Source: an uncultured Chloroflexia bacterium
GTDB taxonomy: Bacteria; Chloroflexota; Anaerolineae; JAAYZQ01
Direction of reading: 5' to 3'
Assembly (NCBI GenBank): GCA_963700285.1
Contig: CAVOXA010000010.1
Span: forward strand, 320,001-384,000
Length of the DNA: 64,000 bases
The notes below the pieces were generated by a model that saw only the letters and a program-made list of their open reading frames with translations, did no database searches and was not told the origin of the DNA. The stretch's first letter is position 1. Each line of letters begins with the position of its first letter. This document shows, one piece after another, positions 6,947 to 55,714 of the stretch. The position numbers and the translations under genes are program-made.

Positions 6947-6960
6947 TATCCTATAGGATA
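6947..6960. promoter_or_regulatory. Operator-like palindrome TATCCTATAGGATA (copy 1)
   Basis: Perfect 14-bp palindrome 8 bp downstream of the -10 box. Recurs at 26021 and 55664. Confidence 0.8.
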
Positions 6961-6968
6961 CAAAGTCT

Positions 6969-6997
6969 ATTGTACAACGATTCCAGCACGCTGTCAA
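6969..6997 (-). promoter_or_regulatory. Sigma70-type promoter P1 for the ABC operon
   Basis: Minus strand TTGACA (6992-6997), 17-bp spacer, TACAAT (6969-6974). Confidence 0.8.
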
Positions 6998-7032
6998 ATC
7001 GTCCGGGCAAAGATGGCCGGATCAAGCGCCGG

Positions 7033-7987
7033 TTAGAATCCCGTACGCTTGTCCACGACGTTGATGAGCGTTCCTCCCTTGACCCAGCGCCGAAAGTTTT
7101 CGACGAAAACCAAGAGAACCCGTTCCCTGTATCTGGGGCTCTGCCCGCCCAGGTGGGGGGTCAGCGCGACGTTGGGCAATCTGCGCAGTTCGCTATCCAC
7201 GGGCAGCGGTTCCTGGTCAAAGACGTCAAGGCCGGCTCCGGCAAGCGGGCCCTCCTTCAGCGCTTCGATGAGCGCCTCTTCGTCGACGAGGGGACCGCGC
7301 GCGATGTTAACCAGGTAACTGCCCTCGTTCATCAGCGAGATGAGATGGCCATCTACCATACCCCTGGTCCCATCGGTAAGCGCGGCAGCCACGACCAGGA
7401 CATCCAGACCTGATGAAGAATTCCTCGATCTGGTCGCTGAGATACATCTCGTTCAGGTAGGGCACAAAAGCCGGGCGGGTGTCATAGCCGCGGACTCTCA
7501 TACCAAAGGCTGCCCCTTTGCGGGCGATCTCCCTGCCGACGTTGCCCATGCCCAGGACGCCCATGGTCTTGCCATACAATTCCTCACAGGTCTGCCGCTC
7601 CCACGTGTCCAACAGGTTGTTCTCCCCGTAGGAGTCGATGATCCTGCGGGTCACGGCCAACAGCAGCGCAAAGGCGTGTTCAGAGACCGAGATGGGGTGA
7701 TTGCCACTGGCATTGGTGAGGACGACATCACTGTTTACAAAGTCCGGCGTGAGCAGGTTCTCCACGCCCGCGCTCAGGGACTGATACCAACTCAGTTTCT
7801 TTGCCCGAGCCAGCAGTTCATCGGTGAAGCGTCCATGTAGAATGATGTCTGCATCCTCGATCCAGGGCGCCATGTCGTCCAGGGTCAGCGTCTGATGCAC
7901 GCACAGGTCTGGATGGATGGCCTCTAGCCGTTTTCGGGTTTCGTCATCAATTTCGTACCGCGACAGAATCGTGATCTCTTTGGTCAT
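7033..7987 (-). CDS. D-2-hydroxyacid dehydrogenase family protein; one frameshift near 7410
   Basis: ORFs 7307..7987 and 7033..7392 join. SAGVE, GVLGMGNVG, NIARG, DVFDQEPL, TPHLGG. Confidence 0.9.
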
Positions 7988-8042
7988 TTTGGCCTCCAGG
8001 ACCTACGACAATGGTCAGTCTTGTCACAATGCCCGTCTTTGC

Positions 8043-9344
8043 CTAGGCTTCAAAAAAGGCTTTGAAAGCCTTGTACATATAGTATTGATCCAGAACACCA
8101 CCCAGCTCCCTGATAGAGTGCATGGCCATCGCGGGATTGCCCACATCCAGGGAACGCATGTCCAATTGAGTAGCCGAGATGGGGCCGATGGTCGAACCGC
8201 CCACGAGATCGGAACGGCTGACAAAGCGCTGGACCGGAACGTCCACTCCCCGGCACAGGGTCTCAAAGACGGCAGCCGAGTCGCTGTCGGTGGTGAAATT
8301 CTGATTGGCCGAGACCTTGACCATGGGGCCGCCGTTCAAGACCGGCCGGTTGACAGGATCGTGTTTGTCCACAGCACCGGGATGAACCCCATGTCCCATG
8401 TCGGCCGATATGAGGAATGACTGGTAGATGGATTGGAAGAAGCCCTCTCGATCCCCGGCCAGCCCATAGGCGATCCGTTCGAGCAGCGTGCTCAGCAAGG
8501 GAGAAGCCGCTCCCTGTTTGGTCCTGCTGCCAACCTCCTCGTTGTCGTAGCAGACCAGAACGTTGGTGGCCTGGGCAGTGCCGGCATTGAGCAGGGCGTG
8601 CAATCCGGCATGGACCATGGCCAGGTCATCCAGCCTGGAGCTGGAGATAAAGTCGTCGTTCAGACCAACAATGCTGCCCCTACCATACTCGTTCAGGAAC
8701 AGGTCAAAATCGACAATACTGCCGGCCTCAATGCCCAGTTTCTCGGCCAGCAGTCCGGCCAGGAAGGCACCTTTTTCGAACTCGGCATTCACGCAGGCCA
8801 CCAGGGGCAGCATGTCCGTCTGCTTGTTCAACTCGATCCCCTCGTTGACCTTGCGGTTCATGTGTAGAGACTGGTTGGGGATGATCAGCAGGGGCTGGTC
8901 AAAGCTGACAAGTCTGATTTCAGGATGCAGGGGATCGTCGCCTGTAAGCGCCACCCGGCCGGCCAGAGTCAGGGGTCTATCCAGCCAGGTGTTGAGGATA
9001 GGACCGCCATAGGACTCTGTATTCAGCATGAGGTAGGTATTGGCCTTGACCAGCTCGGGCGATGGTTTGATCCTGAAGGATGGCGCATCGGTGTGAGCGC
9101 CTACCAGCCGGAATCCCTCTTTCTCGACGGCGCCCTGCCCCACGACAAAGGCGATAACGGCCGAATCATTCCTGGTCAGAAAGTACTTGCCGCCCTTGGT
9201 GATTTTCCACCTCTCTGTCAATTCTAGCTCGTCGAAGCCGTTTGCCTGGAGTGCGTCCTTGATGGTGGCCACGACGTGGAATGGACTGGGGCTGGTATGG
9301 ATGAAATCAAGAAGGTCGTTGGCGAATTTCAGTTCTTCAGTCAT
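8043..9344 (-). CDS. apeB: M18 family aspartyl aminopeptidase
   Basis: SPSPFH, GAHTDAP, YGGPILNTWLDR, RLDDL, DNEEVGS, SADMGHGVHP, GGSTIGP, AMHSIRE. Confidence 0.92.
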   Translation of the reverse strand: MTEELKFANDLLDFIHTSPSPFHVVATIKDALQANGFDELELTERWKITKGGKYFLTRNDSAVIAFVVGQGAVEKEGFRLVGAHTDAPSFRIKPSPELVKANTYLMLNTESYGGPILNTWLDRPLTLAGRVALTGDDPLHPEIRLVSFDQPLLIIPNQSLHMNRKVNEGIELNKQTDMLPLVACVNAEFEKGAFLAGLLAEKLGIEAGSIVDFDLFLNEYGRGSIVGLNDDFISSSRLDDLAMVHAGLHALLNAGTAQATNVLVCYDNEEVGSRTKQGAASPLLSTLLERIAYGLAGDREGFFQSIYQSFLISADMGHGVHPGAVDKHDPVNRPVLNGGPMVKVSANQNFTTDSDSAAVFETLCRGVDVPVQRFVSRSDLVGGSTIGPISATQLDMRSLDVGNPAMAMHSIRELGGVLDQYYMYKAFKAFFEA

Positions 9345-9379
9345 AACGTATGCTCCTCGCTGAAAGTAGGGTTATTGGC

Positions 9380-10422
9380 TCAATAGAGTAAGACTGGATC
9401 CAACACATTGCGCAGAGGTTCTCCGGCCAGATAACGGTGAAGGTTGTCGCAGAATAGATCTGTGAGTTTGGCTTTCTCACTATCTGCGGCACTGGCAGAG
9501 TGCGGACAGATGAGCACGTTGGGCATATCCCACAACGGGCTGTTCGCCGGGCAGTGGTTCCACGGCAAAGACGTCGGAAGCCAAGCCCCCTAAGTGCCCT
9601 GATTGCAGGGCGCGCACAACGGCGGCTCGTCCCAGATAGTGCCCCGGGCCACGTTGATCAACACCGCGCCTGGCTTCATGGCCGCCAGTTCCTCTGCCCC
9701 GATCAAGCCCTCGGTCTCTGGCGTATGGGGCAGGAACAGCACCACGAAATCGGCCCTGGCCAGCATTGGCTGCGAGATCTGTCCAGGGATAGAGGCGCTC
9801 AACCCCAAGGGATGTAGGCTCTAGCCCTTCGATGGTACCGCTTGGTGCCGATCACGCGCATCCCCAGACAACGGGCCAGCCGCGCCACCTCTTGCCCGCC
9901 CTTGCCCAGGCTGATCACCGCCAGCGTCTTGCCCCGCAGTTCGGTCCCGGCGTAGCGCTCCCAGTGCTTGCGTTCCTGTTCAGCCGCCATCCGGAAGGCA
10001 TCCTTGACAAACATGAGCATGGCCATCAGGCAGAATTCGGCCAGAGGGCGGGAATGGACCCCACCGGCGGTGGTAAAGACAATATCGCTCTGGTCCCAAC
10101 CAAACTTGACCACGCCTGGCCGATGCCAGTGCTCGAACCCTGAACCCATTTGAGTTGCGGCGCGAGATCGCAGGAGATCATCGAGGTGGGTATAGTCAAA
10201 GCCGAACATCACTTCGGCTTGAGCCAGCAACTCCTGCCAGCGCGCCTCCTGCGCTCGGGGTACGCTCGATGGGCGCGTTGTAATGCGTTGCATAGTGCGG
10301 CCGGCCCAGCAGACTCGGGATCAAAGAGGACCTCAACCCGGGGATCCACGCCCCGGATCTGGTTGACCAGTTCCGGTTCCAGGGGCAGCGAAATGCAGAA
10401 CCTTGGTTTGATTGTTTGGCAT
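9380..10422 (-). CDS. D-2-hydroxyacid dehydrogenase family protein; several frameshifts
   Basis: Consecutive fragments (10209..10469, 9799..10293, 9590..9808, 9380..9568) carry GVHSRPLAEF, ELRGKTLAVISLGKGG, LPHTPETEGLI, INVARG, PHSAS. Confidence 0.8.
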
Positions 10423-10472
10423 GTGCCTGTGTCCCTTCCAGGCCGATTCGTCAGCCGGACGGCCTGCACGCT

Positions 10473-10842
10473 CTAGAGGACGGCCATCAGGTCGATTTCG
10501 ATCAGGAAATCCTTGCGTGCCAACTCGTTGATGCCCACCGTGGTGCGAGTCGGTGGAATCGGGAAAGTACTCCTTGTAGACCTCGTTCATGCCGCCGAAA
10601 TCCTGGACGTCCACCAGGTAGATGTTGACCTTGACGACGTCGTCAAAGGACAAGCCAGAGCTCTCGACAGTGGCCTTGAGGTTGTCCAGTACCTGGCGGG
10701 TCTGCGGCTCGATGCCGCCCTCGGGCACCTGGCCGGTCTCTGGATTCACGGCAACGTTGCCTGACACGAACAGGAACCCGCCGGCCTTGACCGCCTTGGC
10801 ATAGGGTGCGCCCGGCTTTCCTAGCATCGTCTCTTTTTTCAT
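10473..10842 (-). CDS. RidA family protein (Arg-containing); frameshift near 10560
   Basis: APYAKAV, FVSG, QTRQVLDNL, DVVKVNIYL, MNEVYKEYF; the shifted frame continues PTRTTVG...IEIDLMAVL-stop at 10473. Confidence 0.85.
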
Positions 10843-10868
10843 GATCTGACTCCTTTTTTATGGTTTCC

Positions 10869-11847
10869 TCATTCCTGAGGTTCAAACGACAACGCCCGGG
10901 CCGGATTCTCAACCAGGATGCGGTGTAGCAAGCGCATCGTCAAAGCCCGCCTTGACGCAGCCTGGGCACAAAATCCCGCAGCACGTGATCGTAGCCCGGC
11001 CCGCCTCCGACCTTGAGTTCCATCTCGCGGCAGCGATCGGAGGATAGCATTAGGTGGTCCTGATATCCCCTGTCGACCATCTCGCACAGCAGGTCGACCC
11101 GGGTCTCGTCGAGCATCCAGTGGATCTTGCCGATGACGTCGAACTGGACGTAGGCCCCCCGCCGGGCCAGGGCCACCAGTTGGCGGATGTCGGCGTTCTC
11201 GTCGGTATGGCCAATGATCACCCGGCCGGGTCCACCCCTTCCGCCTCAAAGAGATCGAGGTGCTGCATACCAATGTTGCCGCCCTCGATCTCAAAGCGCG
11301 TCGAGCCGCTGGTGTGGGTGGTGATGGACACACCGGTTCGCTTTTGGGCAAGGGCGACGGCGCGGGCACACTTGAGCTCAGGCCCCTCGATCACCGGCCG
11401 GCTGACGCCCGACTTGAGCAGGCCGGTGCGGATGGTCGTACCGTCCGCGCCGCAGGTCAACTCTTGCACCAATAGTTCCGCCAGATCATCGATGCTGGTA
11501 TCAGCCACGTAGGGCGGGTGGCAGTCTTCGACGTAAAAGCCCGAGATGGCGACAACGTGAATATCCGCACGCTCCGAGATATCTTTCAGAACCACCACGT
11601 CCCGCCCCCAGCCGCTGGTCGTCATCTCGGCGATGGCCCGGCCGCCGGCGGCGTGAAAATCGACCAGCTCGGCGACGATGGTATCCACGTTCAACAGAAC
11701 CATCTTGGCATAGGTACCGGGGAAATCGAGCTCGGAGCGGCAGAGGCGCTGATCACAGTAGAGATGCTCGTGGGGAGCCGTTACCCCCAGTTCCTCTGGA
11801 GCAATATCGCCGCGCACCGTTCGAACCACAGGCGAACCGGTTTTCAT
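10869..11847 (-). CDS. Phosphotriesterase-like (Php/PTE) amidohydrolase; frameshifts near 11221 and 10940
   Basis: VRTVRGDI, HEH, GLLK, ITTHT, IGHTD, LSSD, ILVENPARAL across ORFs 11218..11847, 10940..11221 and 10869..11369. Confidence 0.85.
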
Positions 11848-12524
11848 GTGCGCACCCCCTCCAGCATCTCGATGACCTGCTGCGTGGTCCGCATGCGTAC
11901 CAGGGGACCCACCAGGCCGGTCTTGATGATCTCGTGCCAGCCCAGTGTTTCGCTGGCCGACGCATCCCAGGCGAGGATCACTCCCAGGTCACGGTCGGCA
12001 GCCTCCCGGGCGGCGAGGGCCACCGTCGTGTTGGCCAGCATGCCAGCCAGGATGATGGTGTCGACGCCAGCCTCGTGCAGCGTGTTCAGAAGCACCGGCC
12101 CCGCCGCGAAGGGGCTGTAGGTCCCTCTGGATAGCACCAGATCGCCGGACGTCGGAGCCACTTCGGGGCGGATCTCCTCCCACGGCGAGGCAACCGGGAT
12201 CGGCAAGCCACTCAGGCGGAGCTGCCGTGACAGGTCGCTGCGGTCGGGCTCCTGAGCACAGAGGACGGAATAGATCACCCGCAGCCCATGCCGGCGACAA
12301 CCAGTCAGCAGCGACACCATGTTGCGAAGGGCGGCATCTGTCTGGGCATAGTATTCCTCAAACTCGCGCAGGATGCCCTGCTCACCGGCAAACAGGCCCA
12401 ACCCCTGGTCGCGCATTGTGGTAAAGCGCTGGGCGTCCAGCAGCAACAGGGCCGCGTTCCCCGCCGCCAACGGAAAGGCCGGGTTGGCATGCGAGAGCAT
12501 CTTGAAGGGTACCCTTGGTTTCAT
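11844..12524 (-). CDS. Isochorismatase/cysteine-hydrolase family protein lacking the catalytic Lys and Cys
   Basis: C-terminal part of ORF 11844..13988 from MKPRVPFK: ALLLLDAQ, SRGTYSPF, LAGMLANTTV, AADRD. Purine-rich RBS-like GGGGAAAGGG precedes ATG 12524. Confidence 0.75.
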   Translation of the reverse strand: MKPRVPFKMLSHANPAFPLAAGNAALLLLDAQRFTTMRDQGLGLFAGEQGILREFEEYYAQTDAALRNMVSLLTGCRRHGLRVIYSVLCAQEPDRSDLSRQLRLSGLPIPVASPWEEIRPEVAPTSGDLVLSRGTYSPFAAGPVLLNTLHEAGVDTIILAGMLANTTVALAAREAADRDLGVILAWDASASETLGWHEIIKTGLVGPLVRMRTTQQVIEMLEGVRT

Positions 12525-12537
12525 AGGCCCTTTCCCC

Positions 12538-13988
12538 CTACAACTGCCTGCGGCATAGTTGTACACGAGGTCGACCAGGTACTTTTCGACGTCGGCCAGA
12601 CCGGCGACTTGGCCGTCCCCTTCGATGATCATATACTCGTCGGCATCGCCCCGGCCTCCACCGCCGATGACGCCGCCCCGGACACAGGGTACATTGAAAG
12701 TGTTGGGAACCACGGTCCAGGGGCCGCCGCCCGGCTGCATGGGCCAGATCTCGGCCGCCACGTTCCAGGACGCTAGCGTCTGAAGCGTGGCCTGCACGCC
12801 CGGATCGGAGACGGAGGTTTGGGAGTGGCTAAAGGCAGCGTAGACGTCGATCTCGATATCGGCGAAACCTCGTTCGTCCAGGTGCTGTCGTATAAAGCCA
12901 ATGATCTCCTCAGCCGTCAGATCCACCACCCAGCGCATATCCAGCGTGGCTGTGGCCGTGGCCGGGGTGATATAGGGAATGGTGGTCGTCTCTGGTCCCA
13001 GGAACCCACTGCGTAGGCCGGCGATGTTGAAGGTCGGCCCATAGAGCAGGTTGACGAGGGGGTCCATGCCCTCCAGACCGCCCACGACGTGGCTCACATT
13101 GCCGACACCGCCGAGAGGTAGGACATCACGCCAGTCGCGGCCAGAAGCCCGGGCAGCTAGCGTCTCCAGCAACTCTCGCTCTTCCCCCGTCAGGGGTTTG
13201 CGATAGTTCCAGAGTTCCTCCAGCCCTGCGACGGTGCAGCCCAACCCATCCGCATCGGTCAGGGAAGACAGGGCCTGCGCCAGGCGGAAGGGAGGGCAAT
13301 CCACCAGCGACGCCGCGGAGCTGTGCACAGTCTTGACCGGTCCCCGCCCCCAGGACTGCCCGCTGGCCGTCAATTCGATGACGACCATGCCCTTGAGCCC
13401 CAGGCCCATCGAGACAGTACCGTTGCCTGCCTGGCTACAGGAGGGACAGAAGCTGGCATCCACGTTCTGCAAGCGGCCGGCATAGCGCGCCACAAAATCG
13501 GCATAGGTGGGACTGCCCATAATCTCCTCGCCCTCGGCCAGGAACATGATATTCATGGGCAGGCCACCCTCTACAGCAATGATGGAAGCTAGAGCGTTCA
13601 ACCAGGCTACGTAGGGGCCCTTGGCGCCCATAGCACCACGGCCGACGAGCACCTTGGGGTAAGGTCCGATGGGTACCAGTTCCGCCCCCCAGGGATCGTA
13701 GCTCCAGGTACCCGGCTGCACGGTCCGGGTGTCGATCATGCAGTAGTTATGGACCGTCAAGGGTGCCCCGGCGTCATAATGGGCCCAGACGCCAGGGTGG
13801 AAACGTCCCTCGATGACCTCTACTTCCTGGCAGCCCAGGTCGCTGTACGACTGGGCCACCAGCTCGGCGGCCTCGCGGGTGCCGATATTGTCCCAACTGA
13901 CGCTGGGCTGCCTGACCCACTCTTGGATGTGGGCGACGTGCTGGTCCAGATGTTCGTCGATATGGCGGTGTATGGCTTCTCGATCCAT
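12538..13988 (-). CDS. M20 family peptidase-like protein with degenerate metal ligands (appears fused in frame to the next gene)
   Basis: VRQPSVS, YCMIDT, GRGAMGAKGP, EGEEIMGS, PTFNIAGL, GDADEY. An out-of-frame TAG at 12538-12540 is the likely true stop. Confidence 0.75.
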
Positions 13989-14008
13989 GTGAGAACCTCA
14001 CTCCTCAG

Positions 14009-15433
14009 TTATAATGATTTGATCTGGGCAACGATCTGCTCGACTGACTTGACCTGGATGACCCCACTCTCTACTCTCCACAGAAACTCTTGCAGCCCAG
14101 CGTGATGGGTCGCGCAGGCATCGGGCACCACGACCAAACCATAGCCACGGTCGCTGGTACTGCGGATGGAACCCTCGACAGCGCCGTCGTACGAGATGCC
14201 GGCCAGAATGAGGTTCTCGAGGGCCAGGTTGCGCAAAAGCTCGTCCAGGCCGGTGCCGGTAAAGATACCCGAGGCAGACTTGTCGAGGATGATCTCGCCT
14301 GCTCGTGGCGCCAGTCCGGGCATAAACTCGGCCTCGGGGCTGTCTGGCCCAAAGGCGAAACCCTGGGCCCGTACCTTGCGGCTGAGATCTCGGCCGTCGG
14401 GCAGTCTTCCGGCCGTGCGAACGTGGATCACCGGGACACCTTGGGCGCGACAGGCCTGCAGCAATTTCCCCATACCCGCCAGGGCACTCTGAACGCGCCC
14501 ATAGTACTCGGACAACAACTCCTCTTGACCTCCAGCGGCGGCCAGGGCTCCCAGCCCGAGAGATGGGTCACAGGTGAATCGCTGTCCATCGACCAAGACC
14601 AATGCCGTGTTGCTCTGCGCCAGGGGGAGTTGAAGAGCAGGCGGGAGGATGGCATCATAGGGATCTTTGTCGGCAGAGTCTGTGTCGTCCGGGGGCTTGG
14701 GGAGATAGGGTTTGACCCGCTCCAGGCCGCTCTTCACCTCGGGGCCAACAGCCTCCAGCGGATCGATCAAGTCCACGATCTGGTCTGTGGAGAGGATGTG
14801 CGTCAGCGCGCCCTCCAGATAGCAGATAGCTAGTTCGTGGGTCTCGATGGTGCCCGCCGCACAGGCGTCCGATACGACCACAACGTCATAGCCCAGATCC
14901 ACGGCGTCCCGCACGGCGCTCTCGACACAGCCATTGGTCGAAGTGCCGGTAAAGATCAGGGTCGTGATGCCCATATTGCGCAGCAAGCGATCAAGGTTGG
15001 TAACGGGGAACACGCCAGAGGAGGACTTGTTCACGATCAACTCATCGCCCTTGGGCTGCAGGTCGTCCAGAAAATCAGCCTCACGGCTGCCCGCTGGCAC
15101 GACAAAGCCACGCACCAACTGCTTGCGCCCCACGTCCCGCGAGTCCCCAGTCAGTTCCGAGACACGGATGTGGATGACCTCCATCTCTTTGTGGCGAAAG
15201 AGGGTCAAGAGCTGCTGGATGCGCGGAATGACCGCGTCAATCTGGGAGAAATATTCCTCAAAGTACCGTTCTACACCCAGTTCTTTGGCCGTGCGGCCCT
15301 CGCCCTCATCACGGTCAGCGTCAAAGTACTGCATGTCGACCACCAGCAGGGCGGTACTACCGGCCTGCATCTGTACAGGGGATGTACCAAGGACCTGGCC
15401 AATGGGGTTGTGACAGTTGTCTTTCACATTCAT
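14009..15433 (-). CDS. Tandem two-domain isochorismatase/cysteine hydrolase
   Basis: Domain 1: VVDMQ, NKSSSGVF, TNGCVES, SDACA. Domain 2: LVDGQ, DKSASGIF, YDGAVEG, PDACA. Confidence 0.9.
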   Translation of the reverse strand: MNVKDNCHNPIGQVLGTSPVQMQAGSTALLVVDMQYFDADRDEGEGRTAKELGVERYFEEYFSQIDAVIPRIQQLLTLFRHKEMEVIHIRVSELTGDSRDVGRKQLVRGFVVPAGSREADFLDDLQPKGDELIVNKSSSGVFPVTNLDRLLRNMGITTLIFTGTSTNGCVESAVRDAVDLGYDVVVVSDACAAGTIETHELAICYLEGALTHILSTDQIVDLIDPLEAVGPEVKSGLERVKPYLPKPPDDTDSADKDPYDAILPPALQLPLAQSNTALVLVDGQRFTCDPSLGLGALAAAGGQEELLSEYYGRVQSALAGMGKLLQACRAQGVPVIHVRTAGRLPDGRDLSRKVRAQGFAFGPDSPEAEFMPGLAPRAGEIILDKSASGIFTGTGLDELLRNLALENLILAGISYDGAVEGSIRSTSDRGYGLVVVPDACATHHAGLQEFLWRVESGVIQVKSVEQIVAQIKSL

Positions 15434-15525
15434 GTCCTTTTTCGCAACAGATTTTCAGGTCTTTGCCCCGGGGACTACTGCCCCCGAGGCGGGGCTATGA
15501 GCCATGACAGAAGAATTGGCCAAGC

Positions 15526-17133: not shown

Positions 17134-17150
17134 CCCTATACCCTCTCCCC

Positions 17151-17867: not shown

Positions 17868-17989
17868 TTCATGGTCCCTTCGATTACTGAACCCACCCAA
17901 AAACGCACCAAGCCCCCGATTCAACCGGGCTCCGTACTCGGGGGCGCAACTCGCCCTCGAGACGAGGGTTAGAGCGGTCATGACAGGTA

Positions 17990-18772: not shown

Positions 18773-18835
18773 CCGTTGACCTCAAGGTCCATAAAACTTT
18801 TTCCCACAGCCATCTCTCACGAGGGCCATGGGATG

Positions 18836-19917: not shown

Positions 19918-19919
19918 GG

Positions 19920-42886: not shown

Positions 42887-42900
42887 GCTATCCCTTTCTA

Positions 42901-44148: not shown

Positions 44149-44178
44149 CGACCGTCCTCCATCACAGATCCCTCAAGC

Positions 44179-46164: not shown

Positions 46165-46239
46165 CACTTTCTCCTTTTCTCCAAATCCACACCGGCTGTC
46201 TGCCGGCAGTGTCCCTGGGATCGTACTCGCTTCTGGCTC

Positions 46240-47058: not shown

Positions 47059-47084
47059 TTCTCCAACCCCCACCAGCATCCTCT

Positions 47085-48755
47085 TTAGAAGAGAACACCA
47101 TCATCGGCTGTCCCCAGCATATCCTGACGGATCAATTTTAGAGGAATCAAGCCGTAGGTCATAAAGCGGTCGTGGAACTCTTTTAGGTTGAACTCGCTGC
47201 CGAGCAAGGTCTCATAGTCAGCGCGGATCTTGCGCACCATCTCGCAGCCAATGTGATAGGTCAGGTGTGTGGGATAGTACACGGCGCGATCCAGCAATCC
47301 ATAGGCGCTGGCGCTCATGATACCCGCCTTGGCCTCCATCCACTCGGCCGCCTGGGATAGGGTCCGGACCTGCAGGTGGATCTCCATACCGATAATGGCC
47401 CGCACGATGTAGGCGCGCTTGGACACAAGCGCGCCAAAGCGGTATAGCGGGTCCTGTTCGCCATACACCTCGTCGATCATCATATACTTGCCATATTCAG
47501 CCCAGCCGTCCGAGTTGGAGTCAGAGTCGTGATCCTTGCTGGCCCGCATGGGTACGCGCTGTTCCAGGTGAAACTGGGTATGGTGACCCGGATAGGCCTC
47601 ATGCAGGAAGAGAAGCACCGTAGAATAAGTGTTAAAGTTCCGCAACTGGGACTGAAGCTGCTCAGCGGACCAATCAGACTGAGGCAGGTGCACCATCAGG
47701 TACGATTCCTTGGCCACCGTCTCGAACGGGCCAGGGGTGAGCATCATGCCCCCGCCACTGGCATAGCTGGGCATGGGGCTGACGATCACATCGGGCATCT
47801 CTGGCGGCAGCGTCAACAGGTCGCGGTCAGTGAGGTAGCCGCGCATGCGGGCCAGTTCGCGTCGCATCATCGGCATCAGATCATCGGCTTTTGGGTGGCG
47901 TCCCAACATCCGCTCGCGCAGATCGTCTGGCGTGGCAGCCGGGTCGATCTCGCGTGCCAGTTCATCGATCCGCCGTTCGACCTCCTCCAGGTGGCCATAG
48001 CAGCGCGCCAGAATCTCGGCCACTGGCACGTCGATCATCTCTTCGGCGTCCAGGATGGCCTGGATGCCTGCTTCGCCCACGGCAAAGCTGCCATGCGAGC
48101 GGGGCAGCAGATCTTCCTGCAGGTAGGCTAGAAAGCCCTCCAGTTCCTCCACCACGCAGTCGTTGGCCTCGCGGAAAGCGTTCACCAGGCTGCTATCCTG
48201 GACACGGTCAAACTGGCGGGGCAAGTTTCGAAAGAAATCAATGGCTCCCGGCATCAAGCGAATGGCTTGTTCGGTGTATTCGTAGGGTGGGTTGGTGAGA
48301 TTCGCCCACGCTGCCTGCAACACCTGGGGTACATGCCGCTCGCGTGAGATCACCAACTTGAGGCGCTCCTCCAGCGGCGCGAAGCTGCGGCTGACCAGGT
48401 TGAACACGCCTTCGACGATGGTATCCTTGTAAAAGAGGGGGTTGTTCTCCCAAAAGCGCCAGGTCTCGATCCAATAGATCTCGCGCTTCAGGCGTGTGCT
48501 CAGCACCAGATGGTCGATGGCATGCCAGTAGCCCATCCCCGCCGGGTCGATCCGGGCTACCTCTGCTTGGATGGCCTTCATGCGCCGCAGGGTTTCCTCT
48601 ACTTCATCGCGGCGATAGTGCCCCAGGTGATCATCGTACTGGTGCAGCCCCTGCCGCGTGGCATGCGGCGGGTGATAGGTGTAATAGACGTCGAAAAAAT
48701 CTTTGCTGAGCCGGTCGTATCGCGCTTCTACACTGCTCCGCGCATCCTGAGCCAT
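47085..48755 (-). CDS. DUF885 family zincin-like protein
   Basis: ATRQGLHQYDD, HEAYPGHH, DGWAEY, YHIG, FNLKEFHD, YGLIP. No signal peptide. Confidence 0.88.
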   Translation of the reverse strand: MAQDARSSVEARYDRLSKDFFDVYYTYHPPHATRQGLHQYDDHLGHYRRDEVEETLRRMKAIQAEVARIDPAGMGYWHAIDHLVLSTRLKREIYWIETWRFWENNPLFYKDTIVEGVFNLVSRSFAPLEERLKLVISRERHVPQVLQAAWANLTNPPYEYTEQAIRLMPGAIDFFRNLPRQFDRVQDSSLVNAFREANDCVVEELEGFLAYLQEDLLPRSHGSFAVGEAGIQAILDAEEMIDVPVAEILARCYGHLEEVERRIDELAREIDPAATPDDLRERMLGRHPKADDLMPMMRRELARMRGYLTDRDLLTLPPEMPDVIVSPMPSYASGGGMMLTPGPFETVAKESYLMVHLPQSDWSAEQLQSQLRNFNTYSTVLLFLHEAYPGHHTQFHLEQRVPMRASKDHDSDSNSDGWAEYGKYMMIDEVYGEQDPLYRFGALVSKRAYIVRAIIGMEIHLQVRTLSQAAEWMEAKAGIMSASAYGLLDRAVYYPTHLTYHIGCEMVRKIRADYETLLGSEFNLKEFHDRFMTYGLIPLKLIRQDMLGTADDGVLF

Positions 48756-48772
48756 TGGCTACCCCCTGCGAG

Positions 48773-49705
48773 TTATCCTCGGTGTAGCGTCGGATCTAGG
48801 GCATCGTGCAGTCCATCCCCCACAAAGTTGATACAGAGCACGGTCACGAGGATGGCCAGTCCTGGGAAAATGGTGAGCCAGGGCTTGGTAGACATGGTAT
48901 CCTGCGAGTCCTGCAGCATATTGCCCCATGTCGGCGTTGGCGGTGAGACACCAAGTCCCAGAAAACTCAAGGAAGACTCGATGATAATGGCCATGCCCAC
49001 GCCCAGAGTGGCCCCGACAATGATCGGTCCCATGGCATTGGGCACAATGTGCCTAAAGATCACAGTTCTGTCACGGGTACCGATCATCCGTGCAGCAGTC
49101 ACAAACTCCTGTTCCTTGAGCGACAGCACAGAACCGCGTACGACCCTGGCCGTACCCATCCAGCTCAGGAAGCCGATGATCAATACCATGACCGGAACGG
49201 CGGCGTTGGTATAGGAGGTCAGGACGATGAGTAACGGCAGCGATGGAATGGCAAAGATGATGTCTGTGAACCGCATCAGGGCATTGTCTACCGCACCCCC
49301 GTAAAAGCCGGCAAAGGCTCCCACCAGCGAGCCAAAGATGGTTGCCACCAAGGCAGCAAAGATGCCGATGGACATCGAGATCCGTCCCCCGTACAGGATC
49401 CGGGTCAAAAGATCGCGACCCAAATCGTCCGTTCCCAACCAGTGTTCCTTCGAAGGAGGCTCTTTGACGTGCTTTAGATCGATGGCATCGAATTCGTAGG
49501 GAGCAATGATGGGAGCCAGGTATACTGCCAGGGTCAGGATTACCAGCACCACAGCGGCAGCCATGGCCACCCTGTGGCGCCGGAATTGCCGCCAGATCAT
49601 GCTGCGCAAAGAACGAACATGAGCCTGCTCTGGAGCTACCTCTGCGATCTCGCGTTTTTGGTTAACCATTTTGTGATTCGTATTATCCGGAGTTGAGTGT
49701 GTCAT
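48773..49705 (-). CDS. dppC: Peptide ABC transporter permease (DppC/OppC type)
   Basis: HWLGTDDLGRD, ESSLSFLGLG, GDGLHDALDP. ATGA overlap with the upstream permease. Confidence 0.93.
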   Translation of the reverse strand: MTHSTPDNTNHKMVNQKREIAEVAPEQAHVRSLRSMIWRQFRRHRVAMAAAVVLVILTLAVYLAPIIAPYEFDAIDLKHVKEPPSKEHWLGTDDLGRDLLTRILYGGRISMSIGIFAALVATIFGSLVGAFAGFYGGAVDNALMRFTDIIFAIPSLPLLIVLTSYTNAAVPVMVLIIGFLSWMGTARVVRGSVLSLKEQEFVTAARMIGTRDRTVIFRHIVPNAMGPIIVGATLGVGMAIIIESSLSFLGLGVSPPTPTWGNMLQDSQDTMSTKPWLTIFPGLAILVTVLCINFVGDGLHDALDPTLHRG

Positions 49706-50655
49706 TCGTAGCTGATGCGCGGATCCAGCCAACCATAGACAATATCCGCGAAAAGATTGAAAAAGACAACCATGAAGGCCCCCATCATCAAGATAGCCAT
49801 CAGCAGGGGATAGTCGCGCTGACCCATGGCCTGGATGAACAGGCGACCAATGCCTGGCCAGGCAAAGATGGTCTCGGTGATCACTGCTCCGGAAAAGAGC
49901 CCAGCCAGGTCCAGGGCCATGATAGAGACCACCGGGATGAGCGCATTCTTGAGCGCGTGCCGCCCCAGAATCATGTTCTCGGTAAGGCCCTTTGCCCGGC
50001 CGGTACGAATATACTCCGAATTGACCACTCCCAGCATACTGGTTCGCATGTAGCGAGACCAGCCGGCAATGTAGCGCAGAGAGAGGACAATGCCCGGCAG
50101 AATAAGATGTTTGGCCTGATCCCAAAACGAGTTGTCGCCAACGGTCGCGCGGCCCGAGGTGGGCAGCCAGCCTAGCTGGACTGCAAAAACCAACTGTAGG
50201 ATCAAGGCGAACCAGAAGACCGGCATCGCCACCCCCAGGAAGGAGAGGCCGGTACCTGCAAAGTCCAGCGCGCTATACTGACGCACGGCGCTTACAATGC
50301 CCAGAGGTAAGGCTACGACGGCGGCGATGATGAACCCGACCAGCATCAACTCCAGCGTCGCCGGCAGGCGTTCAAAAACCATCTCTGCCACGGGCCGCGC
50401 TGAGGTATAGCTGTAACCCAGGTCCCCTTTGGCCGCAGTGCTGATCCAGCGCAGATATTGAATGTAGATAGGCTTGTCCAGGCCCAGCCGGTGGCGGTAG
50501 GCCTCGATGATCTTTGGATCGACAAAGCGTCCCGTCTCCAGAAAGACGGTCTCCGGGCCACCCGGGGCTGCCTGGATGACGAGAAAAATAATGATCGAGA
50601 TTCCGACCAGGAGCGGGATCATCTGCAGCAGCCGGCGACGTATATATCGACTCAC
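49702..50655 (-). CDS. dppB: Peptide ABC transporter permease (DppB/OppB type)
   Basis: GLDKPI, GDLGYSY, YIRTGRAKGL, ETIFAWPGIG, LDPRI. Confidence 0.95.
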   Translation of the reverse strand: MSRYIRRRLLQMIPLLVGISIIIFLVIQAAPGGPETVFLETGRFVDPKIIEAYRHRLGLDKPIYIQYLRWISTAAKGDLGYSYTSARPVAEMVFERLPATLELMLVGFIIAAVVALPLGIVSAVRQYSALDFAGTGLSFLGVAMPVFWFALILQLVFAVQLGWLPTSGRATVGDNSFWDQAKHLILPGIVLSLRYIAGWSRYMRTSMLGVVNSEYIRTGRAKGLTENMILGRHALKNALIPVVSIMALDLAGLFSGAVITETIFAWPGIGRLFIQAMGQRDYPLLMAILMMGAFMVVFFNLFADIVYGWLDPRISYE

Positions 50656-50690
50656 TGAGTACCTTCCACCATGAGTTAGCTTCTGGAATT

Positions 50691-50714
50691 GGCAGCTATG
50701 GAAAGCCGCCCTAC
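50691..50714 (-). repeat. GTAG-type REP-like element GTAGGGCGGCTTTCCATAGCTGCC
   Basis: GTAG tetranucleotide directly followed by a 7-bp stem with one G-T wobble. A second hairpin lies next to it at 50721-50742. Confidence 0.5.
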
Positions 50715-50800
50715 GGACTCCCCTACCAGGTTCCTGGCAGGGTGGGTATCCCTACCCGTATCTTTTCAAAGCTCAGCGCCTGTACTGCGGAATATCGCCA

Positions 50801-50834
50801 GGTTGGGCTGGAGACCTGAATCCCCAGCCCAACC
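50801..50834 (-). terminator. Hairpin downstream of the third solute-binding-protein gene
   Basis: 11-bp stem GGTTGGGCTGG/CCAGCCCAACC. No clear U tract, so mRNA stabilisation is as likely as termination. Confidence 0.5.
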
Positions 50835-50860
50835 CATACAGACTAGACAACCTCAGTCAG

Positions 50861-52558
50861 CTAGTTGCCAAAGTCCCATTCGTAGGAATTCCAGAAGCTG
50901 CCCAGGTTGGTGCCACTGCCCTTAAAGTTCTCAAAGTCTTCCCTGAGAACATAGGGTCTCGGCTGGTAGTAGATGGGCAACTGCGGCACTTCTTCCTGCA
51001 AGATCACCTGGACCTCGTCAATCAGCGGTTTGCGCTCGGCAAAGTCAAAGACGCTATCTGAGGCGTGCATGGCCTCATCCAGGTCCTCGAAGCAATAGCC
51101 GGTAAAGTTGTTGGAGGCGTCGCAGGCATACAGAGAGGTGAGGCTTGGATCGGCGGGAATGATCCAACCGCCGACAATGGCGTCCCATTCGGTGGAAAGC
51201 CACTTTTCGATCCAGGCCGCATTCTCCATGTCCTCGAACACGACTTCGACGCCGATCTCTTTGAGCTGGGCCTGGATCACCTGGGCGATGGCCACGCGTT
51301 CCGGGCGGCTCATACGGTTCATGATGGCGAAGGAGAAACGCTCGCCGTCCTTTTCACGGATGCCATCGTCGCCTACCGTCCAGCCCGCTTCGTCGAGCAA
51401 CTGCTTGGCCTTCTCAGGATCATATGTGTACTTGGGCACGTCGGGGTTGTGATAGGGGCTGCTGGGCGTGATCGGCGTGTCCGCGACCTCTACGGTACCC
51501 TCCATAAGATCGACGGCGATGGACTCGCGGTCAAAGCCAAGGGACAGGGCATGGCGTACGTTCTTGTCGCCGAACAACATCTGGCCCCGCTCCGTGGCAA
51601 CGTTGGTACCAAAGTAGACCCAGATGTTCGAGTTGACGATGTCGGTCTTGTACCCTTCCAGGCCCTCAACCTCTGCTACCTGGGCGGGCAGGACCTCGCC
51701 AAGGTCGTGTTCACCGGCCTTGAGCGCATTCAGACGGGTGTTGGGGTCGGGGATGAAGGTAAAGATGATCTCGTCGAGCTTGGGATAGTCGGGTCCACGC
51801 CAGTAGTTCTCATTCTTTACGACGCGGACGTACTCGCCTGATTTCCACTCGGCAAACTTGAAGGGGCCTGTGCCCAGCGGGCTGCGGTTGTAAGCGTCGT
51901 AGGTGAGGATGTCCTCGCCCTCAAGAAAATGCTTGGGCAGGATCGTGTCGAACAGGCTGGCATAGGGCGCGTAGACTTTTTCCCAGGTCAGGACGACGGT
52001 GTAGGGATCGGGCGCCTGGCAGTCGATGATGTTCTGGTACTCGGTCTGGTTATAGACCGCAGCACCCGCCTCACTGACGATGAATTCCCAGGTGAAGCAA
52101 ACGTCCTCGCTGGTGAACTCGACGCCGTCGTGCCACTGGACACCCTCGTACAGGTTCCAGGTCATCTCGACCTTACCATCATCGAGCATGACAATGCCGC
52201 CGTTCTCGGTGGTGGGAATCTCTTTGGCCAGCACAGGAATATAGCTATTGTTGTCATCGCTCATGATCAAACCATCGATCATGGTGATCTCGATGTCAGT
52301 GAGGTTCTGGCTGGTGAGCGCATTCAGCGTATCGATCTCAGAACCATAGGCCACGCGCAAGACCTTCTTCTCGGCCGCGGGCGGCTCGGTGGGCGCCTCG
52401 GTAGGTTCGGGCTCGGCGGGCGCCTGGGTAGGCTCGGGCGCAGCGGCTGCCTCGGTCGGCTCCGGCGGCGCCTCGGTTGCTGCCGGACCGCAGGCGGCCA
52501 CCAACAGCGCGAGTACTACGATCATCAATAACATGCTAGGCCAGTACTGCTTTTTCAT
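50861..52558 (-). CDS. Peptide ABC transporter substrate-binding lipoprotein, family 5
   Basis: Lipobox LVAAC, P/A/T/E linker, WHDGVEFTSEDV, GTGPF, NVRHAL, FWNSYEW. Confidence 0.95.
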   Translation of the reverse strand: MKKQYWPSMLLMIVVLALLVAACGPAATEAPPEPTEAAAAPEPTQAPAEPEPTEAPTEPPAAEKKVLRVAYGSEIDTLNALTSQNLTDIEITMIDGLIMSDDNNSYIPVLAKEIPTTENGGIVMLDDGKVEMTWNLYEGVQWHDGVEFTSEDVCFTWEFIVSEAGAAVYNQTEYQNIIDCQAPDPYTVVLTWEKVYAPYASLFDTILPKHFLEGEDILTYDAYNRSPLGTGPFKFAEWKSGEYVRVVKNENYWRGPDYPKLDEIIFTFIPDPNTRLNALKAGEHDLGEVLPAQVAEVEGLEGYKTDIVNSNIWVYFGTNVATERGQMLFGDKNVRHALSLGFDRESIAVDLMEGTVEVADTPITPSSPYHNPDVPKYTYDPEKAKQLLDEAGWTVGDDGIREKDGERFSFAIMNRMSRPERVAIAQVIQAQLKEIGVEVVFEDMENAAWIEKWLSTEWDAIVGGWIIPADPSLTSLYACDASNNFTGYCFEDLDEAMHASDSVFDFAERKPLIDEVQVILQEEVPQLPIYYQPRPYVLREDFENFKGSGTNLGSFWNSYEWDFGN

Positions 52559-52716
52559 TTCCTTCTCCTTATTCTTCCGAAAATGGATACAGCTTGTTCC
52601 TACACCTCGCTCCCGAGCATAGTCGGGAGAACCAACTGGTTATGGTTTGGTCTCACCTCCTTGCTCGGCGTGGACGAGTCTTGACCACACCACTCAGCCG
52701 AACGCGTTGCCAGCTC

Positions 52717-53886
52717 CTATTGAAACATCTCGACTGTCTGAAGGGAGTGCATTCTCCCATACAGATAGCGATAAAACTCGGGACGGCGCTCCACCGGCAC
52801 TCGTTGCCATACCGGCGTGACTACTCGCTCCCCCCACCAGTAGGACCAGATCAGGACAGCGCGCGCTGGAGCAGCCAAAAAGCGAATGCGATTCGCCACC
52901 CAACCCTCGCCCCCGGCCAGACTGACGGACCGCAGCCAATCAGTTACCTGTTCCTCAGGCCAGTCCAGGGCGTGCATGCGCCAGGCCGCCCCGGTCCCGA
53001 TGCCAGCCCGGTAGCGGCCCATCAAGGCTGAGAAGCGATCGTCATCCGACTCGAGCCAACCCAGCATGTGCAGGCCATTGTCGGCAATGCCCTCGAAGGG
53101 CGAAGAGCTGGCAGTATTGACCACCGAAAGCAGGCCATCGGCTGGCGCGAGCCCCTCGTGATACCAGCTTTCGCGCAGCTTGAACTGGACATAGTGGCCT
53201 GGGCAGCCTTCGTGCACAGCCAGATGCTTCAAACCAGGCCGCGTCAAAATGGGGTCTGTATTCAGCTCGATCTTGCGCACCAGGTAGTTGCAGCGCGCGT
53301 TAAAGGCAACACCCGAGACTGGGACAACCTGCATGGCGTCCGACTTGGGCGCGGGGATGTGCAGCCGCTCCTCGGTGCGGTCCCAGGCTTCTGCCATCAA
53401 CGCCTGGCTCAGATCAGGCACCTCATCAGGCGGCACCCGATTCCGGGCTTCCCAAGCTGCACACTGCGCTGCCAGATCACCGCTGTAACCCATGCTATTC
53501 AACAGAGAACGCATCTCGCCGCGTAGGGCGTCCAGTTCGGCATCGGAAGCAGGCCCGGCCGGGACATGCAGGAACCCGCCGAGTTGCTCGGACAGGGACA
53601 AGTCACCCTCGCGCCAGTCCATAAAAGCCAGCGTAGACTGGCACAGTTGCTCATAATAGCGGCAGCGGTCCGGTTCTGGCAGCTCGCCGGCCAGGGTCGA
53701 CAACTGCCCAAAGCGTTCCCGGGCTGCGGCATAGGAATCAAAGGCTTCGGGTTGGTGAGTACCGGCAGCCATATTGACGACGACAAGCCCTTCCTCGTCT
53801 CCGCTTTCGGCCCGGTACAGAGCATCCACGCCGAGCAGCGCGGTTGTAGCTTGCTCGCCAAGGGCCATAGTCTTGTCACTAAGCAT
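52717..53886 (-). CDS. Hypothetical zincin-like protein, short and distant DUF885 relative
   Basis: VHEGCPGHYVQ, FEGIAD, WSYWWG. Overlaps the stop of the upstream DUF885 gene. Confidence 0.7.
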   Translation of the reverse strand: MLSDKTMALGEQATTALLGVDALYRAESGDEEGLVVVNMAAGTHQPEAFDSYAAARERFGQLSTLAGELPEPDRCRYYEQLCQSTLAFMDWREGDLSLSEQLGGFLHVPAGPASDAELDALRGEMRSLLNSMGYSGDLAAQCAAWEARNRVPPDEVPDLSQALMAEAWDRTEERLHIPAPKSDAMQVVPVSGVAFNARCNYLVRKIELNTDPILTRPGLKHLAVHEGCPGHYVQFKLRESWYHEGLAPADGLLSVVNTASSSPFEGIADNGLHMLGWLESDDDRFSALMGRYRAGIGTGAAWRMHALDWPEEQVTDWLRSVSLAGGEGWVANRIRFLAAPARAVLIWSYWWGERVVTPVWQRVPVERRPEFYRYLYGRMHSLQTVEMFQ

Positions 53887-55579
53887 CAACTGCTTTCCTT
53901 TCCATCTCACTGGCGGTCAACGCCACGGGAATAGAGCCATAGGAGAGAAACTGGTCATGGAAACGGCGCAGGCTAAAGCCGCTGCCCCAGCGGCGCGCCA
54001 TCTCCTGGCGCAACGATTGGATATGGTCAGTGCCAATCAGGTACATCATCGCCCCGCCGGGGAACATGCTGTTCTTGACTGCCTCGCCGTGGGCAGCCCC
54101 GTGCGGCATGCCTGCCCGCTCCTCATAAAAACGCACAGCCTCGTCCAGACTCATGCGCCCCTGGTGCAGCCGGACGTCAACGATGGCCCGGGCGCTCATC
54201 CGCCGCCTTGACTGGTGTTCGGCATACAGCTCCAGGGGCGTCAGGAACCCGGCCTCGCCCATGAGACCGGTAGCATAGCAAGCCCAGCCTTCGGCAATGG
54301 TCCCGCTGCAGAACATGGCGACGCGGGAAGCACAATCGACGGCCGCCATCCGCCCGATGCGGGATTCGGCCCGGTAGGCGTGCCAGTTCTGGACGTGGTG
54401 CCCGATGCTGCCGTGATGGACCACGTGGTTTAGCTTGATGGTACTATCGTTGTTGCCTCGAAGCAGTGCATCCTGCTCGGCCGCAGGCATCGTGGCCTCG
54501 ATGGGGGTTACCAGGTAATCGTGCACCGGCGGCCTGTTGAAAGCCGCTGGGGCGCGGTAGAACAAGAAATAGAGATAGGGAGCCGCCCTGCGCGCCCAGC
54601 CAGGCCGGGGCACGTAGCGGATGGGAAACTCGGGCCAGGTCAGCAGTTCCTGCGCTTCGGCCGTGGCCCGGCAGGCTTCCCACACCTCAGTGTAGCGATC
54701 ATAATAGCCCTCGACCGTGGGATGAAGATCGGCCAGTGCGTCCAGTGCCTCGCGGGCGATGCCTGCACCAAAGTCAGCGGCATGCGCCGCGAGCTGAGCT
54801 TCGGCCTCAGCCATCTGCTCCTCGGCGTAGCGAGCGATCTCGTCGGGGCTCATGTCCACAAAATGACCCTGCTGCATCATTAACTCAAACGCTAGCTCAC
54901 CGCAGGCATAGCCATCGGTGGGGTGTGCGCGCAATTCGGTTTCCAGGAAGCCCTGGTATCCGGCAAATGCCGAGGCGGCCTTGTCCGCTGCGGCCCGGAA
55001 GCGCGGATCGGTTACCGGCTCGTTCTGGATCAGCCAATCAACACCGTCCTGAAAGAAAGCCAGGGCCCCGGTGCATTCCCTTATGGCCCGCTCGGTCCAG
55101 GCAGGTGGCGCCTGGGTCACGTTGGCCCGCGCCTGCTCCAGCAAGGCTGCAGTCGCCCCCATGCGGGCGATGGCCGACTCGACACGCTGGTCCAGTGGGG
55201 CAAATGGGGTCAGAAAAAGGGACAGGATGCCAAATATCGCCTCGCCGGTATAGAGGGATGGATTCCCAAGGTGGAAATGAGTGGAGGTATATTCCCACAA
55301 CTGGCACTCGAGGTAGCCCTTGGCCAGTTTGCGATCCAGCGCCTCTGCCCCGGTCAGGGGTTCGGCGCCGGGCATGGGTTCGGCCGCTAGATTACGCAGT
55401 TGCCCCAGCAGTGACTCCATTTCGGCCAGCGTGTCACCCGCTCCCTGCTCCGAGTAATCAGGCAACTGGTCATCGTATTGGTGAACGCCAATGAACGTGG
55501 CGTTGACCGGGCGGCGGCGGTAGTAGGCAGCGAAAAACTCATCGAGCCAGGTAGTGAATTCTGGGGCTTTTGTCTCCAT
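53879..55579 (-). CDS. DUF885 family protein with HH in place of HE
   Basis: ATFIGVHQYDDQLPD, VVHHGSIGHHVQ, AEGWACY, IVDVRLH, FSLRRFHD, YGSIP. Confidence 0.88.
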   Translation of the reverse strand: METKAPEFTTWLDEFFAAYYRRRPVNATFIGVHQYDDQLPDYSEQGAGDTLAEMESLLGQLRNLAAEPMPGAEPLTGAEALDRKLAKGYLECQLWEYTSTHFHLGNPSLYTGEAIFGILSLFLTPFAPLDQRVESAIARMGATAALLEQARANVTQAPPAWTERAIRECTGALAFFQDGVDWLIQNEPVTDPRFRAAADKAASAFAGYQGFLETELRAHPTDGYACGELAFELMMQQGHFVDMSPDEIARYAEEQMAEAEAQLAAHAADFGAGIAREALDALADLHPTVEGYYDRYTEVWEACRATAEAQELLTWPEFPIRYVPRPGWARRAAPYLYFLFYRAPAAFNRPPVHDYLVTPIEATMPAAEQDALLRGNNDSTIKLNHVVHHGSIGHHVQNWHAYRAESRIGRMAAVDCASRVAMFCSGTIAEGWACYATGLMGEAGFLTPLELYAEHQSRRRMSARAIVDVRLHQGRMSLDEAVRFYEERAGMPHGAAHGEAVKNSMFPGGAMMYLIGTDHIQSLRQEMARRWGSGFSLRRFHDQFLSYGSIPVALTASEMERKAVDA

Positions 55580-55663
55580 CAGTAAACACTCCAGTGGTGC
55601 TCTGGCTCATCACAGGGGAACATGATCAAGTCAGAACTCCAGGATCGCCCGATCTCTATCCTC

Positions 55664-55677
55664 TATCCTATAGGATG
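55664..55677. promoter_or_regulatory. Operator-like palindrome TATCCTATAGGATG (copy 3) with extra half-sites
   Basis: 13/14 match, 8 bp downstream of the -10 box. Flanked in 7-bp register by TATCCTC (55657) and CAGGATC (55678). Confidence 0.8.
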
Positions 55678-55685
55678 CAGGATCC

Positions 55686-55714
55686 ATTATACCAGGATCA
55701 TATATCGCTGTCAA
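55686..55714 (-). promoter_or_regulatory. Sigma70-type promoter P3 (perfect consensus) upstream of the DUF885/ABC operon
   Basis: Minus strand TTGACA (55709-55714), 17-bp spacer, TATAAT (55686-55691). Confidence 0.88.

Follow-up and report, generated by a model that had tools for sequence, protein, structure and literature searches.

We analysed a stretch of 64,000 nucleotides (nt) of contig C10 from an uncultured Chloroflexota bacterium (positions 320,001-384,000, hereafter the window; source assembly G000, 7.05 Mb, 89% complete), which carries a long cluster of catabolic genes, and identified a 14-base-pair (bp) palindrome, TATCCTATAGGATA, located directly behind the promoters of this cluster. 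The palindrome is probably (we estimate the probability at about 0.8) the operator of the cluster's own VanR-group GntR/FCD protein, P0001, which would repress the cluster. In the proposed mechanism P0001 would cover the transcription start of four long catabolic units, among them that of its own gene, and come off in response to a small-molecule inducer, and binding at about +1 to +15 would block initiation; that the control is repressive is suggested by the location of the site at the predicted transcription start. The operator word and the matching changes in the recognition helix of the protein appear to be undescribed.

The earlier note on this DNA had described three elements composed of a TTGACA box, a 17-bp spacer, a -10 box and the palindrome, without giving a strand. 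Reading of the minus strand confirms all three (sites 1-3, Table 1) and places them on that strand, like all genes of the window; a fourth, perfect site beyond its right end heads the gene run that contains the GntR/FCD gene. Sites were searched by the number of mismatches to TATCCTATAGGATA, against shuffles as the background for the window and a 5th-order Markov model for the genome. The window holds four matches with ≤ 3 mismatches (shuffle mean 0.47; none of 100 shuffles reaches four), the fourth of which (position 56132, 3 mismatches) is intragenic and lacks a promoter. The genome-wide scan proposed in the earlier note recovered two exact and two one-mismatch sites (expected: 0.0004 and 0.045, respectively), i.e. 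far above background, and all four are found at promoters within the 62 kb of C10:326947-388479. The promoter scan covered sigma-70-type -35/-10 boxes and a score of ≥ 10/12 was considered strong. Only four promoters in the 127 kb of C10:285,000-412,000 reach that score and the operator lies behind all four, while genome-wide 5 of the 482 TTGACA-type promoters have a site (≤ 3 mismatches, at most 20 bp from the -10 box): the four cluster promoters and one unrelated repeat near a LysR-type gene. The latter (C10:549017, 12/14) was excluded, as it is a different inverted repeat between the LysR-type gene and its divergent neighbour, which encodes a membrane protein; the repeat, TAACATAT-N3-ATATGTTA (C10:549017-549035), is located at a consensus promoter and is probably a LysR-type box. 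Also excluded was C1:672458, where the CCTATAGG core overlaps a TATCCT -10 box and is followed by 25 bases also present at the start of contig C5.

Six genomes and one metagenome contig provided 18 promoter-linked sites that could be aligned, and all of them lie 6-9 bp downstream of a near-consensus -10 box. The GT/AC pair of the canonical FadR-subfamily operator is absent from all 18, which bears out the earlier remark that the motif lacks the usual GntR GT-N-AC core. Non-canonical motifs are known for other GntR-family members, among them BioR, NanR, FarR, NagQ and SdhR. Part of the promoters have an extra upstream TATCCT(A/G) box in 7-bp phase with the palindrome: it is present in 5 of 5 DUF885-type promoters, in both GntR-proximal promoters and in that on contig C36 of genome G005, as compared to 1% of 401 control promoters, and it is absent from sites 1, 2 and 4 and their orthologues. 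Such phased boxes were seen at site 3 and in the relatives G005, G011 and G013, and four of them occur in tandem in G062.

The site and the regulator were then compared over relatives at three levels: 22 other genomes of the family, 401 genomes of the class (with up to 7 candidates per genome scored for the GntR clade) and 301 genomes in a phylum-level profile search. Within the family, the clade of P0001 is represented in 5 of the 22 genomes, and the site (≤ 1 mismatch) occurs in those five and in one of the 17 genomes without the clade. Within the class, the clade was found in at least 7 and the promoter-plus-core pattern in 6 genomes, 5 of which are common to both. The sixth genome with the clade, G011, contains one 13/14 site, at the head of a same-strand run that includes its only clade GntR. 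In G062, which belongs to another family and has a GntR that is 46% identical, four tandem TATCCTA-type heptads are located between the promoter and the GntR gene, the sole such place in that genome; no further clade members were found in its family (1 of 4 genomes). The site directly precedes a clade GntR gene on contig C228 of G013 (14/14), in locus L032 (14/14), where the promoter is orthologous to that of site 4 and the GntR is 89% identical to P0001, and on contig C6 of G005 (12/14). As to the putative target genes, the first cassette behind site 2 is found directly behind a clade GntR in five other loci and its racemase subtype in the five family genomes (of 22) that have the clade, and the site occurs before the orthologues of the first genes of unit B in five genomes (four genera) and of unit D in five genomes (three genera). 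The earlier note had tied the site to this GntR and had suggested looking for their co-occurrence in relatives; the link is supported by that co-occurrence, by the sites before homologous GntR genes and by the fourth site at the head of the run of the GntR gene itself. Scans with single proteins returned two loci on genome contigs and three on metagenome contigs.

A number of candidates were rejected. G463, the only addition from the phylum-level search, has the canonical Arg helix and no site at ≤ 2 mismatches and is not a clade member. Two-mismatch matches in G062, G013 (C193, C645), G016 and G018 (C336) are intragenic or off consensus promoters and were taken as background, and the 13/14 matches in 3 of 38 non-family genomes are at the control level (4 of 38 for the reversed pattern).

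The regulator itself (234 amino acids) has an N-terminal winged helix (PF00392, E-value 5.7e-16, above the cut-off) and a C-terminal FCD domain (PF07729, E-value 3.5e-20), and the structural model (mean predicted local distance difference test score 89.7) has six helices after residue 85, like the VanR type, versus seven in FadR. Its nearest solved relatives are TM0439, PmiR, 7u5q, McbR and Atu1419, with 7u5q, PmiR, TM0439 and McbR as the best folds. Alignment with PdhR and 7u5q places Ile44, Asp45 and His55 of P0001 where FadR has Glu34, Arg35 and Arg45, so that the canonical recognition residues of the FadR subfamily are lacking in P0001; the replacements are kept in 119, 115 and 118 of the 121 clade proteins, respectively, and His55 aligns with an Arg of both PdhR and 7u5q. 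Loss of the recognition Arg is not unique to the clade (Phe in TM0439, Ile in McbR, and His in 16 of 150 wider representatives). The FCD domain has a predicted metal site of three His and one Asp, which matches the residues of TM0439 and PmiR and is almost invariant in the clade (Asp142, His146 and His192 in 121/121 proteins, His214 in 120/121).

The following comparisons with known systems draw on parts of the papers cited. Atu1419 of Agrobacterium fabrum (6z74, 6za3; PMC7797058) shares with P0001 the winged helix, the six-helix FCD domain, the metal site and a palindrome with a central TATA, and it represses catabolic genes as well as itself, as is predicted for P0001. Its Arg45 reads G3 of ATGTATACAT, a base that is essential (PMC7797058), whereas the cluster has a C in the operator and His55 in the protein; the two proteins are ~24% identical and the regulon predicted here would have roughly ten times the size. 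TM0439/UxaR of Thermotoga maritima (3sxy, 3fms; PMC3750489) is the best solved-structure match to P0001 (E-value 1e-18, 27% identity); it also has a metal-binding FCD domain, lacks the recognition Arg and binds several operators of one catabolic regulon, as predicted here. It differs in that it controls a sugar-acid regulon and has a motif of 17 nt, a comparison that concerns the length of the motif and not its letters; CCTATAGG is absent from the supplements of PMC3750489 as far as these were covered. For PmiR of Pseudomonas aeruginosa (7xp0, 7xp1; PMC9728974), the Zn ligands D143, H147, H192 and H214 align with D142, H146, H192 and H214 of P0001, and R95, E99 and E191 with R96, E100 and E191 (the numbering assumes a chain offset of 14, deduced from the construct described); the first carboxylate-binding Arg is kept. 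PmiR has the canonical Arg helix and P0001 does not. NanR of E. coli binds three direct GGTATA repeats cooperatively as three dimers (PMC8012715), and is comparable in being a non-canonical GntR-family system with repeated boxes, although the core of the cluster operator is a palindrome to which the phased boxes are optional.

In the parts of PMC4494728 covered, the canonical consensus is given as (N)GT(N)xAC(N) or TKGT...ACMA, 23 GntR orthologous groups are described as having extra half-sites at a distance of 7-12 nt from the centre, and a preference of Asp for C is noted at the Arg35 position. Two supplements of that paper contain neither the CCTATAGG core nor the SHTP helix; a third (a regulator table) may bear on this. 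A full-text literature search, to which RegPrecise and most subscription journals are out of reach, found no paper with the 14-mer or its 12-base core, and a search on Chloroflexi GntR regulons gave general papers only. The system would work like Atu1419 or UxaR but has neither the canonical operator nor the canonical recognition residues.

In the mechanism that we favour, a dimer of P0001 would read the palindrome, and at some promoters further subunits would bind the extra boxes. The central TATA of the Atu1419 site recurs in the operator, and the C in place of the G that is read by Arg45 would match the replacement of Arg45 by His55 and of Arg35 by Asp45 in the clade; judged from the alignment, these two residues would explain why the GT/AC core is missing. 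The inducer is predicted to be a Zn-coordinated carboxylate, because P0001 retains the Zn ligands of PmiR and its first carboxylate-binding Arg, even though two other ligand residues are changed. Our best guess is glutamate, 2-oxoglutarate or an N-substituted relative, a tentative choice made because the cassette linked to the regulator would convert a D/L-amino acid via a 2-oxo acid and acyl-CoA to ATP.

Several observations weigh against this reading. At the inducer step, the PmiR ligand residues R184 and S218 (PMC9728974, as far as covered) are replaced by Ala and Gly in P0001, and by this comparison the inducer would not be 2-methylisocitrate. At 19-33 kb, each unit would be long for one operon, and the promoter scan was restricted to the sigma-70 type. 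The Fisher values for the co-occurrence, 0.0002 by genome and 0.003 by genus, overstate the association because the genomes are kin. G016 has a 13/14 site and neither a promoter nor a clade GntR, and in G052 the promoter-plus-core pattern (11/14) precedes an Rrf2-cysK pair, with no clade GntR found. This look-alike occurs at both ends of contig C479 (L079:11-60 and 6944-6990); it resembles what we take to be a CymR-type site, and a search for that consensus found no paper. Conversely, the clade genes on contig C262 of G005 and on contig C6 of G000 have promoters of their own and no site; the former (L075:2720-3539) is a stand-alone gene behind comEC with a consensus promoter. Finally, G000 encodes 14 FCD proteins, three of which belong to the clade, and the two paralogues of P0001 (C10:274738 and C6:201071) share its recognition helix SHTPVRE, one of them having a degenerate site of its own.

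The paralogues give rise to the alternative that survives best, namely that the palindrome is an operator of the clade that is read mainly or equally by these two proteins, with joint control by up to three repressors and possibly different inducers; we consider it improbable. Cross-binding to the operator is possible, since the identity to P0001 in the helix-turn-helix is 83-84%, versus 57-62% in the FCD domain. Furthermore, the promoter of the C10:274738 paralogue has TATCCTA-TATACTA over its -10 box, an arrangement kept in G001, and a G001 paralogue has TATCCTA-TACCCTA behind the -10 box. On the other hand, G011 and G013, with one clade GntR each, nevertheless contain the site, which in G013 directly precedes that gene, the site-4-type promoter of L032 directly precedes the closest orthologue of P0001, and the 350 bp upstream of the C6 paralogue contain no half-site.

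Still less probable is binding of the site by a regulator from a different family (Rrf2, IclR, LysR or an as yet unnamed one) encoded elsewhere, with the GntR as just one of its targets. The Rrf2-cysK pair behind the look-alike of G052 and an IclR-like gene divergent from one of the G013 sites would fit such a regulator, but the three full Rrf2 genes of G000 are on other contigs and have no site upstream, and the site tracks the GntR clade with its altered helix up to the distant copy in G062. The earlier note had named the GntR/FCD protein as the only regulator in the window: its gene is confirmed, it is the sole regulator among the 63 open reading frames (ORFs) of the window that were scanned against Pfam, none was seen in the remaining gaps, and a wider scan of 125 ORFs over C10:284,600-412,000 added only a canonical GntR at 285,016.

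We consider it very improbable that the palindrome works at the RNA level (a 5' hairpin) or that it is a promoter element that was copied and has no protein partner. The predicted location at +1, a possible five-pair stem with a four-base loop and the nearly invariant sequence between -10 box and operator in the site-1 promoters are compatible with it, but 7 of the 18 sites deviate from the palindrome, each by a change that breaks a pair and none with a compensating change, which argues against a hairpin; in addition, the four G000 promoters have unrelated 17-bp spacers (4-9 identical positions out of 17), the boxes of G062 form a direct repeat and no Rfam family matched in the window. An operator just behind the -10 box blocks initiation and consensus promoters need no activator, so that a GntR that binds the sites and activates, or has no strong effect, is equally hard to credit with 18 of 18 sites placed behind near-consensus -35/-10 boxes, although the direction of control is a prediction from their position.

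The genes behind the sites (Table 1) were assigned to families with Pfam and NCBIfam scans, and the matches are mostly below the curated cut-offs. Each same-strand run may form one transcript; if each unit is indeed one operon, the regulon would comprise ~80 peptide, amide and amino-acid catabolic genes over ~94 kb, ~57 of them in the window (with frameshifted pieces merged). Beyond the window, same-strand catabolic genes of unit D run on to about C10:293,984.

Table 1. Predicted operators, promoters, regulator and gene units (window positions unless a contig is given)
Feature	Position	Strand	Remarks
Putative operator site 1, TATCCTATAGGATA	6947..6960	-	14/14; invariant in 5/5 aligned orthologous promoters from three genera
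Predicted sigma-70-type promoter 1	6969..6997	-	TTGACA (6992-6997), 17 bp, TACAAT (6969-6974), 8 bp to operator; consensus match
Putative operator site 2, TAGCCTATAGGATA	26021..26034	-	13/14, mismatch within half-site; no flanking extra box; identical sequence in G001
Predicted sigma-70-type promoter 2	26041..26069	-	TTGACA (26064-26069), 17 bp, TG-extended TATCAT (26041-26046), 6 bp to operator; consensus match
Putative operator site 3, CATCCTATAGGATA	55664..55677	-	13/14; orthologous DUF885 promoters with site in G001, G005, G011, G013
Extended site 3	55657..55684	-	GATCCTG upstream (55678-55684), GAGGATA downstream (55657-55663), 7-bp phase; ≥ 5/6 box matches vs ~1% of 401 control promoters
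Predicted sigma-70-type promoter 3	55686..55714	-	TTGACA (55709-55714), 17 bp, TG-extended TATAAT (55686-55691), 8 bp to operator; 12/12
Putative operator site 4, TATCCTATAGGATA	C10:388466-388517 including promoter (window-equivalent 68466)	-	14/14; TTGACA-17-TAGAAT-9 bp; 4.5 kb past the right end of the window
P0001, GntR family, FCD/VanR group	56881..57585	-	Likely repressor of the cluster, from family, structure and residue evidence
Predicted unit A, part in window	55740..64000	-	Amidohydrolases, formamidase family, aminotransferase, glyoxalase, RidA, GntR, two nitroreductases; starts outside the window at site 4; single operon inferred from strand, spacing and no other strong promoter
Predicted unit B, behind site 3 (29 kb)	26314..55579	-	Three DUF885, two peptide-type ATP-binding cassette (ABC) binding protein and permease sets, short-chain dehydrogenases/reductases, Gfo/Idh/MocA oxidoreductases, amidohydrolases, thiamine pyrophosphate (TPP) enzyme, M20 hydrolase, ApbA-like reductase, two AstE/AspA hydrolases; predicted extent
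Predicted unit C, behind site 2 (19 kb)	7033..25945	-	From family scans
Unit C, first cassette	18773-25945	-	Glutamate-racemase-like gene, aminotransferase, 2-oxoacid:ferredoxin oxidoreductase, succinyl-CoA-ligase-like pair, ferredoxin
Unit C, remainder	downstream of first cassette	-	Amidohydrolases, isochorismatase-family hydrolases, RidA, 2-hydroxyacid dehydrogenases, M18 aminopeptidase
Predicted unit D, behind site 1, part in window	1..6718	-	Binding protein and two permeases of a peptide-type ABC set, M28 and M20 peptidases; predicted extent

Four amidohydrolases of unit A are chlorohydrolase-like. Divergent from site 4 there is a plus-strand unit (C10:388590-395150) with an amidohydrolase 3, a member of the ATC-hydrolase family, a dimethylargininase-like gene, a TPP enzyme and an aminotransferase, and with a TG-extended TATAAT ~100 bp from the operator. 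The racemase gene behind site 2 (25105-25945) is the only glutamate-racemase-like gene recovered with this query in G000, G001, G011 and G013, and G000 has murD; site 2, being the weakest operator, might leave a basal expression of the racemase. The racemase motif is usually GCTH, and the copy in locus L034 reads GCTD. At the end of the oxidoreductase cassette, a 68-amino-acid two-cluster ferredoxin-like ORF (18773-19044, minus strand) falls below the 90-amino-acid cut-off of the ORF list. The three peptide-type ABC sets (3032-6718, 28196-32240 and 48773-52558) consist of binding protein and permeases without an ATPase, and G000 has 57 SBP_bac_5 matches versus oligo_HPY ATPase tails at about eight loci, none of these on C10; the ATPases are therefore probably shared. 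Many ORFs of the window are split by single frameshifts (e.g. 25826-25833, 7413-7415) and whole in G001, and the reverse was also seen, so that these are probably long-read assembly errors and not pseudogenes. Two metatranscriptome runs contained 7-9% of the words, and their contigs covered a few hundred bases of the nitroreductase genes.

The region had been viewed earlier as an island with a probable island-wide regulon. A regulon is supported and is, if anything, larger than was thought, whereas we speak of a cluster and not of an island because the G+C content is flat (0.59-0.63, as in the genome) and no integrase was found among the ORFs scanned. In G001 the cluster is syntenic (79-92% identity), in other genera it has been rearranged, and its GntR clade and site have a patchy distribution (5 of 22 family genomes). 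A tRNA pair (C10:274308-274458) lies beside the unit of a paralogue: directly after tRNA-Met and tRNA-Gln, the paralogous GntR heads a convergent plus-strand unit (C10:274308-288961) with a peptide ABC set, amidohydrolases, an M20 peptidase, a canonical GntR and a hydantoin racemase. Elsewhere, a conserved leader of a MATE-like transporter gene (C22:71890-71960 in G000, C4:768429 in G001) contains TAGGAT-A-TAGGAT and a longer inverted repeat GATAGG...CCTATC, without a match in Rfam.

The regulatory logic, a local GntR repressor acting at its own and at neighbouring catabolic promoters, is that of the textbook, and the narrow lineage limits the general interest. The matched change of base and residue would provide a clean case for a GntR recognition code outside the GT/AC consensus. 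A more far-reaching version, which we think unlikely to hold in full, is that the clade rewrote the code (Arg35/Arg45 to Asp/His) for a TATCCTA heptad that serves as a module in three arrangements, namely a palindrome alone, a palindrome plus phased extra boxes and a tandem array; having the same DNA-reading head and divergent ligand pockets, the three paralogues would then share operators and provide multi-inducer control of a ~100-kb cluster for the scavenging of peptides and amino acids, in which the number of boxes would tune the repression per operon. With such a rewritten code and shared operators, the regulon would be among the largest local ones. For this uncultured Chloroflexota lineage, the favoured reading would tie ~80 poorly annotated genes, including DUF885 and DUF4438 members, many amidohydrolases and three peptide-type transporters, to one signal, and the inducer, once identified, would indicate which substrate the cluster as a whole serves to degrade.

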